Below are positions 18,543 to 23,639 of a DNA stretch of 44,039 bases, in pieces. Numbering within the stretch: position 1 is the stretch's first letter; each line of letters starts with the position of its first letter. Position numbers and translations under genes: made by a program. The DNA is from a phage. The notes beneath the pieces were generated by a model. It was not told the DNA's origin. It saw only the letters and a list, made by a program, of their open reading frames with translations, and ran no database searches. The DNA lies in NCBI GenBank assembly GCA_030821775.1, contig GCA_030821775.1_4700.1; one strand, written 5' to 3'.

Positions 18543-21161
18543 TTAAGCAAAACAGTAGTCGCTATCCATGATTTCGTTCAGGTCAAAGCTGCCTTGCTCT
18601 GGCACTTCGATGCCAGTATCAACCATCCAGCGGTCTTCGTGCTCATCAAGCAGTTTCTGCAAGGCGTTCCCTTCTGAGTACATGCCAACCATTTCTGATT
18701 TCAGTGCATGACGCAGCTTAGCGGTATTGTCTGCGTGAGTACCAAAGGAGTCGTGAATCACTGCAATACTCGTCACCCCTTCATCAACCAGATGACAGAC
18801 GGTCAGAATCAGGTGGCTTGCGTCATGACCATGAACGAAGTTAGGCGCTGCTGCTCCCATCATAGCGGTTTCATCCACTACATCAGTTTCAACTTGCAGA
18901 CTCATTTTGATGTCACCCATCAGGCAGGTGCGCACACGGAGCATCTCGGTCGCCATAATTTTCTGCTTCAGGATGAAGCCAGTTGGCAGTGGGTATTCCA
19001 ACCCTTCATTGCGCTTAGCTGCAAAGCGAGCCAACTTGCGAATCATCTGCATCGCCACTACCGGAGCCTTAACAACCTCAGAGATGGAAGGCCAGATGAG
19101 CGCCGTCATGTAGTTGTATGCTTTAGCCGGAGTAAGTTCACCGTTATCATCAAACGGGTGCACACGGTTCGCTGCGCGCCCTTCTGCCACCGCCATTTGT
19201 GCCTCTTTCTCTTCCAAATCGACGATATAGTCAATCACAGAATCACGGCAGGTGATGCGAGTAGAGCCGTAAGGCAGCGTCATTACTGGTTTCTTGGTCA
19301 GGCCACGGGTAATGCCTACGCTATCCCATGCGCTAGCCATAGCTCGAAGGTCAGAGCCGGAGAGGGTTAGGCTTCCGCTCGTGAAGGTCGTCCCTTCTTC
19401 GGCATCCATATAGAGCACATTTTTAGAAATGACCACCTGTGCAACCGCGCCGTAAATATCCTGCGGAGCGTCGGACGGCTTCAGGTTTACAGCTTTAGCG
19501 CCCACCTCATCGCGTAACATAGCGGAGTAATGCTGAATGCCGGAGCAAGAGCCATCTTGGTGGACTGGCAGGTGAGTTTCGAAATCGGCCTGCGTCCCTT
19601 TATCCAGTGCATCCAGATAGCGGGAGTATTCGAAGCACCAAGCAAGAAATTGGTACGGCTCATCCGCTTTAGCCCACTGTGTGAAAGTCAGCGGGTCGGC
19701 TGCAATGTCACGGCACATATCTTGGAAATCACCGTCTAACACGTTGGACTGACGTACGTCAAAGGTCTTCTTATCCCAACCCCACAGGTTAGCGCCCAGC
19801 ACGAGGAACCATTTAAGAGCTCCAGCGCTGTCAATCTTCCGCCCCTCTGTGAAGCGTAACAGAGATTTACCCAGGTCGTTAGACTGTGGGGACAGGGTGG
19901 AAGATTGAGCGTAAACACGGCTGCGGCTGTCCATCACGTAGACGAAGTAGATGGATTCAAAGGCGCTATATTTGCGAGCCTGTCCAATCATGCGAACCAC
20001 GGCGGCAGACTTGGAGCCGCGCTTTGTTTCGGCGGTGTATAGTCGCGCACACTCCCCTTTCCAGTTAATGAACGCCTGCCATTGCTCTTCTGATAGCATT
20101 TCTTTCAATTCACGACCCCGAAGATGTTGGAACTCAACCGGAACAGGGTTAGCAGGCTTGTTTTCCTTGTCAATTAGTGGCTTAAAGGACGGCACACCAT
20201 AGCCCAAATCAAGGCGGATGACGTCTTCAGCTACCGCTAAAACCTCTTTGTTAACCTGCCATTTGGTGTTTTGTAAGGCGTTAATAGCCTTGTACACCTT
20301 AGGCATTTGCTTAACAGTAAGTTTGCGAACATGCTCACGGTCGCCCTTAACCAGACGCACACGACTAGCCACCTTCTCAGTATGGAAGCCACCATTAAAC
20401 GGGGTTTTCCAAGGACGAGGAGGAACAACGCAAGGAGCATAGGCTGGGGCCAGTTGTGCTACGTGCTCTTTAAAGGCTGCAATCCATTGGCCTACAGTTT
20501 CGGAGGTTTGCAGGTAATAAATAGTTTTACCGCCAAATGAGCGCATAGCGCGAACGAACACAGGCTCACCGTTGTAGAATACGCTAGCTTCTAGTATTTC
20601 CAGCAGGGTAGTACCAATCTGCAATTGTGTATCTTTAGGCCATGCCTCCCAGCGGTCAAAGTCAGCGTCTTTAGCGGCTACAGACTTCTCAGCCACTACA
20701 GCTACATTGTGAGCGTGACGGTATGACTTGGTGCGGCTAGCCTTAAGCGATTTCTTCACTTTCTCGAAGTATTTCGCGGCGTGGCCTTCCAGCTTGCTGA
20801 AGCGCACTTGGTCTTCGATGCGCTCGGCAATGCTCATAGAAATGGCCTGCAATGTTACATCAGTGTTCAGCATATCCATAACTACCTTCATGGTAATATA
20901 GGCTGCCACCTCGTTTTCTACACACTGTAAGAAGGCTAGGGCACGAGGAGCGCGGCCTTTCTTGCCTTCGTATTCTTCTTTGTAAGCCTGAATGCCTTCA
21001 GCCATAGGCGCGATTAATTCAGACAGCAGGCGGCGATTCCATGCCGTATCTGATTCATTACCCGATGCTATTTGGCGCTGTTGGTCTGCCTCAAAGCGAC
21101 GGATCCCGCCATTAAACATTTCTTCTTCAAGCTGAAGCTGGATAGCGTGTAAGTCCTGCAT
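18543..21161 (-). CDS. Single-subunit DNA-dependent RNA polymerase, SP6-type
   Basis: 872-aa ORF with AGGAG SD; N-terminus [32 protein letters not shown]... and overall sequence match my recollection of SP6 RNAP almost residue for residue; consistent with the SP6-type promoters across the genome. Confidence 0.95.
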
Positions 21162-21224: not shown

Positions 21225-22097
21225 TCACTTAGTTAACTCTTCTACTGCCTCAGAGATTAAAGCCCATGCCTCGTGGCCTTCACCATAGCCCAGCTTAACC
21301 AGTTCGCGGCGCGCCTTGTTAACTGCGGTCTTCTTCGTTGCCTCCTCAGCGCTCAAACCTAGGCGAGCGTAGAAACAGGACGATTTGAACTGCGGCAGCA
21401 TAGGCGCGGCGCTTTTCTTGGTTTCCCGTGCGCTGGTCAGTTCTGCTATGCGGCCGTTTGCTGCGGTAAGTTGCTCGGTCAGCGTCTTTATTTGCGCCAA
21501 CAGGCTAGCCATAGCCGCGTTCTCGGTGTTCTCAGTGTTATCCAGCTTAGGCGCTGCTACCTCGGTAGTCGCTGGTGCATCTTCCCACGGTGCGGATTCG
21601 TCGCCCTCCGGTGCTATATCCTGCGGTACGCTTTGCAATGCCTCAGATTCTACAGGAGCGGCCTTCTCAGCTGGTTTTGTGGCTTCGGCTTGTGATTGGT
21701 TGGCTTCAGCCTTCACAGGCTTAGACGGCGCCACAAGCGCGTTAACGGCCTTGGTGTCTAATTCGCCGTTAGCGGCAAGTTCGGCGGCCTTATCCATGAT
21801 TGCTCTATCATCGGCAAAAGGGATAAGGGCAAGCATGGCACGCATGGCAACGCCTTTAAAACGCTCATCACCATCAAAGCAACGCGCTACGTTCATCAGG
21901 TTGTAGCATTGTGCTTTCTTGATACCGAACTCAGCTTCTACATAAGCCAGGAACTCACGCTGATTCTCAAAATCACCGCGTAACTCATTCAGGAGGGAAC
22001 CTACTTTGAGGTAAGAGGCTCCTATTGTTTCTAAGTGTGCTTTGATTTCAGCAGTTGCAGCTTCACGGACAGAAACGATGGTGTTTTCAGTAGTCAT
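21225..22097 (-). CDS. Early protein of unknown function (290 aa)
   Basis: N-terminal globular region, central Ala/Pro/Glu-rich low-complexity linker, C-terminal helical region; just upstream of RNAP and downstream of a phage promoter; no SD. Confidence 0.55.
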   Translation of the reverse strand: MTTENTIVSVREAATAEIKAHLETIGASYLKVGSLLNELRGDFENQREFLAYVEAEFGIKKAQCYNLMNVARCFDGDERFKGVAMRAMLALIPFADDRAIMDKAAELAANGELDTKAVNALVAPSKPVKAEANQSQAEATKPAEKAAPVESEALQSVPQDIAPEGDESAPWEDAPATTEVAAPKLDNTENTENAAMASLLAQIKTLTEQLTAANGRIAELTSARETKKSAAPMLPQFKSSCFYARLGLSAEEATKKTAVNKARRELVKLGYGEGHEAWALISEAVEELTK

Positions 22098-22167
22098 ATA
22101 GTCACTATTTGGTTTGTTGAGATAATTTAATCGGGCGCTAACAAGTAACGCCCTGTTAAGTCATCTC

Positions 22168-22185
22168 TTATAGTGTCACATAAAT
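22168..22185 (-). promoter_or_regulatory. SP6-type phage promoter (variant)
   Basis: Plus TTATAGTGTCACATAAAT, two deviations from consensus, upstream of the 290-aa early gene. Confidence 0.55.
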
Positions 22186-22290
22186 AACTTGTATGTAGTT
22201 CCTAGCACTTCCTCGCGAATCTGGGCGAATCGCAAGGAGCACTTCAGGGTTACGCCGTCGGAAAAGATAAAGTTATATTGCTTTTCCATA

Positions 22291-22620
22291 TTACTCTTCC
22301 TCTTCGTCTTCATACCAAACTACACTGCTATTATTTGGCACATCATTATAAAGCGCCTCATAAATGCGAGCCTGTAGAATCTTGGTTACGTCCTTAGTGT
22401 CAGAAATCAAGCCAGCATCCTCGAATTCGGTATCAATACCGTCGGCTGCCATCACAGTAAAGATTTCATGATAATAGTGAGGTACCTTGCCGTCTACAAC
22501 CTCATGCAGTGCATCAGAATAATCATCATCTTCACGGATACCATCGTATTGAATGCGTTCATTGAATGCTTCAACAGTTGCAGCCAGAAGTTCATAATAA
22601 GCGTTTGCATCACGTTTCAT
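22291..22620 (-). CDS. ocr: Ocr-like DNA-mimic anti-restriction protein (T7 gp0.3 homolog)
   Basis: 109-aa highly acidic ORF with GAGGA SD. The core ERIQYDGIREDDD...VPHYYHEIFTVMAADGIDTEFEDAGLISDTKDVTKILQARIYEAL aligns closely with T7 Ocr as I recall it; acidic C-terminal tail. Confidence 0.8.
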   Translation of the reverse strand: MKRDANAYYELLAATVEAFNERIQYDGIREDDDYSDALHEVVDGKVPHYYHEIFTVMAADGIDTEFEDAGLISDTKDVTKILQARIYEALYNDVPNNSSVVWYEDEEEE

Positions 22621-22769
22621 GATTTAATCCTCATTAGTTAGTTAGGTTACATTATAGGAGACTCAAGAGAATCTCCTAGATTTAACCTATCCCGACTAAG
22701 AAGCTACCTATCCAAATCGTTAAAGAGCTTGGTTTGCGCCTTGATAGGCCAGCTTATGCTGGCTGCTAT

Positions 22770-22949
22770 CTATTTGTAAACACGTAACAAGTGCAAGGAT
22801 TGCTTAAAGCCGTGCTCTTTGATATATGCAATAGTTCTTATATGACAAGTAAAAGCAGGCTCCCATTTATCAGACCCTCGCTTCTTACCATATATCACCT
22901 CCATATCTTCTAAGATATCGTACTTTAATCTATCAGTAAGTTTACGCAT
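22770..22949 (-). CDS. Small early protein (59 aa)
   Basis: Hand-translated ORF MRKLTDRLKYDILEDMEVIYGKKRGSDKWEPAFTCHIRTIAYIKEHGFKQSLHLLRVYK; weak SD. Confidence 0.35.
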   Translation of the reverse strand: MRKLTDRLKYDILEDMEVIYGKKRGSDKWEPAFTCHIRTIAYIKEHGFKQSLHLLRVYK

Positions 22950-23063
22950 GATAGTTTACCTTATCAGTAAGCCTATCAAGACACAAACCAAATTATTAAA
23001 GAGCGTTGCCTCTCGGCTATGTGCTTAATGTAACCTTGTATGCCGTGGCTGTCAATAGTTAAT

Positions 23064-23288
23064 TTAGAGACTTGTCGTGATTACTTCATCGTAATCATAA
23101 TCTTCACTACCTAGATACTCAGTAATGACTTGGTTGTCATACTCAGACACTAAGGTAACTCGGTGATACTCAGTGCTGTAGTCTATCAAGTAGTGATACA
23201 CATCAACACCTACACCGGCTTGCATCATATCATCATGGAAGCGAATAGCTTCGCTAGCTGATTCAAAGAATACCTCATGTTGATACAC
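23064..23288 (-). CDS. Small acidic early protein (74 aa)
   Basis: GTG start with strong SD (GGAGGG), coupled to the upstream gene (TAGTG); ~25 percent Asp/Glu plus many Tyr. Confidence 0.5.
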   Translation of the reverse strand: MYQHEVFFESASEAIRFHDDMMQAGVGVDVYHYLIDYSTEYHRVTLVSEYDNQVITEYLGSEDYDYDEVITTSL

Positions 23289-23467
23289 TATTTACCCTCC
23301 CTCAGCTCATCTATCATGTTACGGTATTGATTAACCGTATCGGTCCAACCTTCGTTAATGAAACGGTGATACAAAGCTAGCTCATCATCTGTAAGCAATT
23401 CGTTGTTACGAATCATATAGCATAACAAGGTGAAGAGAACGGATAGTTCACGGTTGTTTAATGTCAT
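23288..23467 (-). CDS. Small early protein (first gene after host promoter)
   Basis: Track ORF 23288..23509 begins at an alternative start; the ATG at 23467 has a GAGGAA SD and gives a 59-aa product. Confidence 0.45.
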   Translation of the reverse strand: MTLNNRELSVLFTLLCYMIRNNELLTDDELALYHRFINEGWTDTVNQYRNMIDELREGK

Positions 23468-23610
23468 AGCTAATTCCTCATTCAATAAGTAATTAACCAC
23501 GGCATACACAGGTTACACTAAGCAAATTGTTAAAGAGCAATGTAGGCGCTAGTCTCTTCGTAGGCCTTACTAGCTGGCTACTAGGTGCCTCAGCACCGCC
23601 TACGTGATGC

Positions 23611-23639
23611 ATTATGCATACACTAAGATAACTTGTCAA
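23611..23639 (-). promoter_or_regulatory. Sigma70-type host promoter for early transcription
   Basis: Minus strand reads TTGACA, 17-nt spacer, CATAAT (-35 at plus 23634-23639, -10 at plus 23611-23616), ~100-140 nt upstream of the first early gene. Confidence 0.5.

Follow-up and report, generated by a model that had tools for sequence, protein, structure and literature searches.

The window, as the whole stretch of DNA analyzed here will be called (44,039 nucleotides; contig GCA_030821775.1_4700.1 of assembly GCA_030821775.1), comprises the entire genome, circularly permuted and ∼44 kb in length, of a podophage of the SP6/K1-5 type (Autographiviridae, Molineuxvirinae), whose genes are encoded on the minus strand. 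The region considered (positions 22291 to 23288 and their flanks) encodes a homolog of the T7 anti-restriction protein Ocr among other very small genes. As judged from sequence comparison, it is very probably the canonical early block of such a phage, transcribed by the host RNA polymerase and already annotated in relatives. The ocr gene is the single gene of the block with a known function, and its allele appears to have been traded with phages of the T7 group.

Identity of Ocr and its position in the early block

The deposited genomes nearest to the window are those of Vectrevirus phages (∼84% nucleotide identity and 91% coverage in the 20-kb stretch compared). The early region extends on the minus strand from ∼23640 down to the gene of the single-subunit RNA polymerase (21161..18543), and its order of transcription is gp1-like, gp2-like, orf59, ocr, gp4-like, a 290-amino-acid gp6-like gene and the RNA polymerase gene. 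The five small genes are the following.

23288..23467, minus strand: gp1-like gene, 59 amino acids; mildly acidic, isoelectric point (pI) 4.7; phrog_9275; directly upstream of the region treated in the preliminary description
23064..23288, minus strand: gp2-like gene, 74 amino acids; GTG start overlapping the gp1 stop by one base; phrog_6403
22770..22949, minus strand: orf59, 59 amino acids, basic; phrog_20168; in the slot between gp2 and ocr
22291..22620, minus strand: ocr, encoding a 109-amino-acid homolog of the T7 gp0.3 DNA-mimic anti-restriction protein; K-type allele (see below)
22176..22289, minus strand: gp4-like gene, 37 amino acids; phrog_11746; ATG one base past the ocr stop (TAAtATG)

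The four open reading frames (ORFs) named in the preliminary description, which was made from the letters of the DNA, were all present on the minus strand at the coordinates given there. All five small ORFs showed purifying selection (ratio of non-synonymous to synonymous substitution rates, dN/dS, 0.00-0.26) in comparisons with up to six relatives, namely K1-5, K1E, PSK8, P433.1, NIC06P3 and one metagenomic relative, and all matched PHROG profiles (E-values of 5e-40 for gp1-like, 5e-28 for gp2-like, 7e-14 for orf59, 1.5e-50 for ocr and 4e-30 for gp4-like). In view of these ratios and matches, they are evidently genes and not chance ORFs.

The proposal that ORF 22291..22620 is homologous to T7 Ocr was borne out by Pfam, PHROG and PDB matches, which all agree, and its identification as Ocr by sequence is unambiguous. 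The product matched Pfam PF08684 with 106 bits (gathering score 25; E-value 1.5e-30) over profile positions 6-92 of 101, phrog_2568 (“ocr-like anti-restriction”; E-value 1.5e-50) and the solved T7 structure 1s7z_A (E-value 4.5e-26; residues 11-98 in both proteins), and 2y7c was matched at a similar level (E-value ∼3e-26). Global alignment with T7 Ocr gave identity at 53 of 109 positions and was gap-free to residue 104. Within residues 1-99 of the T7 protein, 18 of the 23 acidic positions are kept in the window Ocr and four acidic positions are gained, and F54 is conserved. In total, 28 of the 109 residues are Asp or Glu, with a net charge of -20 and a pI of 4.1.

T7 gp0.3 (Ocr; PDB 1S7Z; PF08684) and the window protein are thus homologous along the whole core, including its acidic positions and F54, and their genes occupy comparable places as early genes made by the host RNA polymerase behind a structured leader. 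The window Ocr differs in being 8 residues shorter, its first 10 residues are divergent, and only a short acidic tail is common to the last 15 residues, which are otherwise unrelated. Moreover, the window ocr is located in an SP6-type genome with small genes ahead of it, whereas T7 gp0.3 is the first gene.

T7 Ocr is an all-helical protein whose elongated acidic dimer has the shape of ∼24 bp of bent B-DNA, and this dimer obstructs the sites at which type I restriction-modification enzymes and the BREX methyltransferase bind DNA. By homology, the window Ocr would be expected to form a similar acidic dimer mimicking bent B-form DNA, to fill the DNA-binding sites of the same two kinds of enzyme, and to shield the incoming unmodified genome during the first minutes of infection. 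Complexes of the T7 protein have been solved and are among the PDB entries matched, and the literature on the mechanism of Ocr includes PMC11317158 and 10.1101/2024.04.12.589305. According to Silas et al. (10.1101/2023.04.06.535777), Ocr escapes PARIS and EcoR22I when it carries the substitution F54V.

The preliminary description did not regard Ocr as a standard feature of SP6-group genomes, and on this point it was mistaken. The early regions of 19 SP6-group loci were compared (the window, K1E, K1-5, SP6, PSK8, VEc3, 6948, NIC06P3, LF31P3, P433.1, mutPK1A2, ULINTec7, six IMG/VR contigs and one SRA assembly), and ocr was found in the same position in every one. The order common to these loci is gp1, gp2, a variable slot, ocr, gp4, a second variable slot, gp6 and the RNA polymerase gene. 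In RefSeq, K1E gp3, K1-5 gp3 and SP6 gp5 are annotated as “ocr-like”, and SP6 gp5 is described as a putative anti-restriction protein (Scholl et al. 2004, as cited in PMC4837284). The window Ocr is orthologous to K1-5 gp3 and K1E gp3 of the genus Vectrevirus (84-87% amino-acid identity) and has the same neighbors, with gp2 upstream and gp4 coupled downstream, such that allelic divergence is the sole difference; its best database match is that of phage PSK8 (89.9% identical). From these comparisons, Ocr appears as a fixed and already known feature of SP6-group phages. A recent and unusual gain of Ocr in a group that normally lacks it, which the high identity to Kayfunavirus Ocr could suggest if viewed in isolation, is extremely improbable and was rejected, since the protein has been annotated in SP6, K1-5 and K1E from their first descriptions and its gene is found at one and the same place in all 19 loci.

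Probable exchange of ocr alleles with T7-group phages

Two alleles of Ocr, designated K-type and T7-type, occur in SP6-group phages, and both are found within the genus Vectrevirus. The K-type is carried by the window, K1-5, K1E, PSK8, P433.1, mutPK1A2, ULINTec7 and two metagenomic contigs, and the T7-type by SP6, VEc3, 6948, NIC06P3, LF31P3 and others. The two types are ∼50-56% identical to each other. Across the groups, the Ocr of the window, K1-5 and K1E is 83% identical to that of Citrobacter phage SH3 (Kayfunavirus, T7 group), and SP6 gp5 shares 77% of its residues with T7 Ocr. Between the RNA polymerases of the two subfamilies, by contrast, identity amounts to only ∼29%. It is this disparity that argues for exchange of ocr between the subfamilies. 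By sequence comparison, ocr cassettes have evidently been transferred between T7-group and SP6-group phages on at least two occasions, as allele replacements in an ever-occupied slot. The module exchange with T7-group phages that had been suggested earlier therefore stands as far as the crossing of alleles is concerned, but not as the gain of a gene, because the slot always holds an ocr.

When the window Ocr was used in tblastn searches, Kayfunavirus sequences were matched at 80-83% identity, Klebsiella T7-like phages at ∼76% and T7 at ∼60%, and some members of its own genus at 56-58%. The window allele is the one shared with K1F-like (Kayfunavirus) phages. SH3 gp2, the Ocr of this Kayfunavirus member (Studiervirinae), is similar to the window Ocr at both the amino-acid (83%) and nucleotide (76%) levels over the ocr ORF. 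The DNA similarity is confined to 22632..22300, i.e., the ocr ORF together with its ribosome-binding site. In contrast, the flanks are dissimilar, SH3 gp2 bears a 60-residue C-terminal extension, and SH3 has no gp4-like gene downstream. The Ocr proteins of T7-type (SP6 gp5 and those of VEc3, 6948 and NIC06P3) occupy the same slot as the window Ocr and belong to the same family, but are only 50-58% identical to it, versus 77-79% to T7 Ocr. The gp4 gene keeps its place beside either allele.

C-terminal extensions were observed in other Ocr proteins of the K-type, amounting to 60 extra residues in SH3 (L004 950..1459) and 15 in PSK8 (L005 2501..2875). They stand where the window Ocr has its short acidic tail.

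A blastn comparison with genomes that carry the T7-type allele did not locate the recombination breakpoints around ocr. The alignments run straight through the gene, because the two alleles retain ∼70% identity in their DNA.

Predicted transcription signals of the early block

The early region contains a series of predicted promoters and RNA elements, all on the coding strand of the early genes.

23611..23639, minus strand: early promoter 1, sigma-70-type, strong (TTGACA-17-CATAAT, 11/12 matches)
23523..23538, minus strand: boxA-like element 1, GCTCTTTAACAATTTG
23027..23055, minus strand: early promoter 2, sigma-70-type, strong (TTGACA-17-TACATT, 10/12 matches)
22989..23004, minus strand: boxA-like element 2, GCTCTTTAATAATTTG
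22713..22728, minus strand: boxA-like element 3, GCTCTTTAACGATTTG; precedes ocr
22629..22703, minus strand: ocr leader, structured, with a perfect 10-bp inner hairpin
22164..22179, minus strand: first promoter core of the phage RNA polymerase, GTGACACTATAAGAGA; overlaps the last gp4 codons
22133..22153, minus strand: GC-rich hairpin, stable, immediately following the phage promoter; z-score -5.55

The core of the phage promoter occurs at 12 sites in the window, versus 0.14 expected, and none of these lies upstream of 22179..22164 on the coding strand of the early region. The genes gp1 through gp4 are upstream of every phage promoter and must therefore be transcribed by the host RNA polymerase. 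On this sequence anatomy, the promoter at 22164..22179 would mark where the block served by the host polymerase alone comes to an end. The early position assigned to these genes in the preliminary description is upheld, with sigma-70 promoters upstream and no prior phage promoter.

The first two boxA-like elements are each located downstream of an early promoter, while no third sigma-70 promoter was found ahead of element 3 at the scan threshold. The core of these elements, GCTCTTTAAYRATTTG, presumably a close likeness of the Escherichia coli rrn boxA antitermination element, is present in three copies in the whole window (versus 0.01 expected by chance), each of them within the early region. 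The likeness among the three copies is restricted to the boxA core, and related copies are present in K1-5, K1E, VEc3 and others. This arrangement suggests a Nus-factor-dependent read-through of the early region by the host RNA polymerase.

The folded 146-nt segment 22770..22625, which contains the stem of the ocr leader, has a z-score of -4.35, and none of 200 shuffled sequences folded as well. The leader hairpin is possibly an RNase III-type processing site. An Rfam scan of the early region yielded no family.

Taken together, the two strong sigma-70 promoters would drive the block, with a boxA element after each and a third ahead of ocr, and the host RNA polymerase would read through the five small genes and on towards the gene of the phage RNA polymerase. 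Several points nevertheless weigh against this account of the region. The roles given to the boxA elements and the hairpins derive from consensus matches and folding energy only. The anti-restriction activity of the K-type Ocr is likewise deduced from its ∼50% identity (53/109) to the T7 protein, and we found no paper in which anti-restriction by a K-type allele was tested. In addition, gp1, gp2, orf59 and gp4 gave no informative match in Pfam, NCBIfam, PADLOC and PDB sequence searches, and fold searches with gp2 and orf59 produced generic matches only.

The small proteins encoded around Ocr

Profile searches with each early ORF and fold searches with gp2 and orf59, along the lines proposed in the preliminary description, confirmed Ocr but gave no functional match for the other small ORFs. 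In Pfam, NCBIfam and PADLOC scans of the five small ORFs and the 290-amino-acid gp6-like ORF, Ocr alone was matched, and literature searches on K1-5 gp2, SP6 gp4, the relatives of orf59 and boxA in SP6-type phages revealed no relevant functional work. Further small acidic proteins had also been anticipated beside Ocr. This was correct for gp2, which is strongly acidic, but no other protein in the region then described is of this kind, orf59 being basic and gp4 near neutral. By their distribution, gp1, gp2 and gp4 would be lineage-conserved early proteins, and orf59 a rare, horizontally mobile cassette.

The 37-residue ORF coupled to the ocr stop, which had been listed as a possibility, is a real gene (dN/dS ∼0, with a PHROG match). 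Its product matched phrog_11746 over positions 1-37 of 37 (E-value 4.3e-30), is 100% identical to K1-5 gp4 over 36 residues, has a pI of 7.9 and is the most conserved protein of the early block. Comparison with K1-5 and PSK8 revealed no non-synonymous and 11-13 synonymous codon changes, and the dN/dS over all comparisons is 0.00-0.05. The synonymous changes are spread along the gene, and the constraint is therefore on the protein, even though its last four codons overlap the first promoter of the phage polymerase. The gene directly follows ocr in 19 of 19 SP6-group loci and was detected in 135 phage records of 43-46 kb (SP6, K1-5 and Vectrevirus included), from the hosts Escherichia, Klebsiella, Salmonella, Proteus, Citrobacter and Raoultella. 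It is often left without annotation, including in the SP6 reference (SP6 copy: L003 2006..2110), and merits annotation in phage records. Profile searches of Pfam, PHROG and PDB revealed no homolog of known function.

Downstream of gp4, the gap to gp6 (22176..22097 in the window) is free of genes and contains only the phage promoter and hairpin. Elsewhere, this gap is occupied by different small genes (K1-5 gp5, K1E gp5 and SP6 gp6), several of which are hydrophobic by eye. It is the second slot of variable content beside ocr and gp4.

As to the function of these conserved proteins, gp2 and gp4 (and gp1) may be host-takeover factors that bind conserved components of the host (RNA polymerase, nucleoid proteins or the division apparatus, for instance), rather than inhibitors of defense. 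We consider this quite conceivable, if short of probable. The T7 proteins 0.4, 0.6, 0.7 and 2 are host-takeover factors, and SP6-group phages are not known to have recognizable homologs of the T7 host shut-off proteins. Consistent with such a role, all three are core genes of the lineage and predicted to be made early by the host polymerase, gp1 and gp2 are conserved from SP6 to K1-5, and purifying selection is very strong, as is most apparent in the dN/dS of gp4 and its 135 records from six host genera. On the other hand, no homology or structural match to known host-takeover proteins was detected, and the pattern of conservation is the sole argument.

Somewhat less likely, at least one of gp2, gp4 and orf59 would be a new kind of bacterial defense inhibitor, made from the same early transcripts as Ocr. 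The best candidate among the three is orf59, because its behavior is that of an accessory gene mobile among unrelated coliphages.

The ORF at 22770..22949 had been listed as a small ORF, and it proved to be a real gene, though encoding a basic protein (pI 9.56, net charge +5) under purifying selection (dN/dS 0.18). It matched phrog_20168 with an E-value of 6.6e-14. There is no counterpart in K1-5, K1E or SP6, and the alignment with K1-5 breaks at window positions 22947..22749. Across the 19 loci, the gp2-ocr slot is either empty or contains orf59, K1E 2.5, K1E 2.8 or both of these K1E genes. Only three of the loci carry orf59, i.e., the window, one SRA contig (85% identity) and one IMG/VR contig. 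In the latter (L018 974..1152), the gene is in two pieces in different frames, owing to either a frameshift or a sequencing error.

Distant homologs (37-47% identity) were detected in pSf-2 (gp74; Tunavirus) and BEK6 of the Drexlerviridae, in FV3 and Bas59 of the Vequintavirinae, and in phi92 (gp243) of the Stephanstirmvirinae. In the alignment, 13 columns are invariant, among them KLT and AFxCHxxTI, and the predicted fold consists of three strands followed by two helices. The invariant pattern KLT...AFxCHxxTI...G...LL is shared by phi92 gp243, pSf-2 gp74 and the BEK6 hypothetical protein (phrog_20168), but these homologs belong to unrelated phage families, in which they are located within arrays of small early genes with no adjoining ocr. 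On these sequence comparisons, orf59 appears to be a rare, mobile accessory cassette and the single feature distinguishing the window from K1-5, K1E and SP6. A GC-rich hairpin (22764..22747) lies directly past the orf59 stop, with no U-tract on the coding strand, and could be a transcript-stabilizing or processing element that travels with the cassette.

A mobile counter-defense gene that landed in the accessory slot of an anti-defense locus would account for several features of orf59. The content of the slot differs among close relatives, and we infer that a variable slot just upstream of ocr is the type of position where counter-defense genes tend to sit. The gene has a predicted promoter and boxA element of its own upstream, lies directly ahead of ocr, is under purifying selection and is common to unrelated virulent coliphages, i.e., the T1-like pSf-2 and BEK6, the rV5-like FV3 and Bas59, and phi92. 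It is argued, moreover, by Silas et al. (10.1101/2023.04.06.535777) that accessory genes beside known counter-defense genes are often counter-defense genes themselves. However, guilt by association is the sole argument, and PADLOC, Pfam, NCBIfam and PDB searches gave no match. The basic character of the protein indicates that it is not a nucleic-acid mimic, and the copy split by a change of frame, one of three in the SP6 group, implies that the gene is dispensable. On balance, a counter-defense role for orf59 is unlikely.

The remaining protein, gp2, had been described as ∼25% Asp/Glu, Tyr-rich and unrelated to Ocr. Its acidic, Tyr-rich and unrelated character was verified, but the Asp/Glu content is 21.6%; the protein has nine Tyr residues, a net charge of -14 and a pI of 4.05. 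Residues 1-74 matched positions 1-69 of 69 in phrog_6403 (E-value 5.2e-28). The homologs form 46 clusters (64-95% identity), all of 74 amino acids except for one 54-residue fragment, and the protein was found in 62 phage records. A profile search of 1.84 billion representative proteins added three genuine relatives, P0052, P0058 and the C-terminal domain of P0055, which match the same PHROG, while a scan of IMG/VR gave 6 loci, too few for statistics. K1-5 gp2 and K1E gp2 are 95-96% identical to the window protein and agree with it in position and in the one-base overlap with gp1. SP6 gp4 is a remote relative (34% over the C-terminal 41 residues). No difference of note separates the window gp2 from these members of phrog_6403.

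In the family alignment, the N-terminal half is variable and the C-terminal EYLGSEDYDYDEVITT is nearly invariant, and the net charge is negative throughout (-6 to -15). The dN/dS is 0.14-0.26 in the more divergent comparisons, above that of the neighboring genes. The AlphaFold model (predicted local distance difference test score, pLDDT, 90.9) is a compact, ferredoxin-like beta-alpha-beta-beta-alpha-beta domain. Foldseek against PDB retrieved generic ferredoxin-like domains (PII, ACT, CutA, IsdG and S6) with E-values of 1.5e-3 or weaker, and no known DNA mimic (Ocr, ArdA, Arn, gp5.9, Ugi and others) was among the 50 PDB matches listed. The structural neighbors in BFVD are uncharacterized proteins of phages CrRp3, PP1 and PM 116. 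The invariant acidic, tyrosine-rich loop EDYDYDE would be the likeliest site for a host protein to bind. With its compact form and its single invariant loop of acidic and aromatic residues, the modeled gp2 looks more like a protein-protein interaction module than a DNA mimic.

The proposal that gp2 is a second DNA mimic or defense inhibitor alongside Ocr is quite improbable, and as a DNA mimic it is based on charge alone. The net charge of -14 over 74 residues gives a charge density similar to that of the window Ocr, and negative charge is kept in all members of the family. Expression is predicted from the first early promoter, and the fast-evolving N-terminal half, the invariant acidic loop and the raised dN/dS are compatible with an arms race. 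Yet acidity is common among phage early proteins, no sequence similarity to Ocr was detected by blastp (E-value 0.35), and the predicted small globular fold found no known DNA mimic in the comparison above. Furthermore, gp2 is a core gene of the lineage and not an accessory one (62 phage records and SP6 gp4), for which a conserved host target fits at least as well.

Apparent homology of gp2 and gp1 to designer pentatricopeptide-repeat (PPR) proteins (E-values down to 6e-20) was rejected as an artefact. The score is inflated because a weak 22-residue helix-turn match is summed over 8-10 identical repeats, and no single stretch passes. The same repeat artefact explains P0051 and the other long repeat proteins retrieved with gp2 from the 1.84 billion proteins. 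A PPR-like segment of ∼22 residues is present in residues 12-33 of gp2 and residues 27-55 of gp1 (consensus SEAxRLLEEMEQAGVxAD..TF), which is odd in adjacent genes. In LF31P3 (L023 3016..3108), a 31-residue partial duplicate of gp2 is found just upstream of the full gene.

The gp1-like protein is 98% identical to K1-5 gp1 and 69% to SP6 gp3. Like gp2 and Ocr, it is closest to K1-5 and K1E. In this respect the three differ from the N-terminal 250 amino acids of the RNA polymerase (21161..20412), which are 94% identical to SP6 and 88% to K1E and PSK8. The differing affinities hint at a mosaic of SP6-like and K1-5-like lineages.

The presence of Ocr in an SP6-type phage is textbook knowledge, already annotated in relatives, and is nothing new. 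The modest value of the present analysis lies in the map around ocr, namely a fixed slot with traded alleles and two flanking variable slots, and in the three conserved small proteins (gp1, gp2 and gp4) that are predicted to be expressed together with Ocr within the first minutes after infection. Phages of the genus Vectrevirus serve in therapy against K1 E. coli, and knowledge of which early genes defeat which defenses would aid the prediction of their host range.

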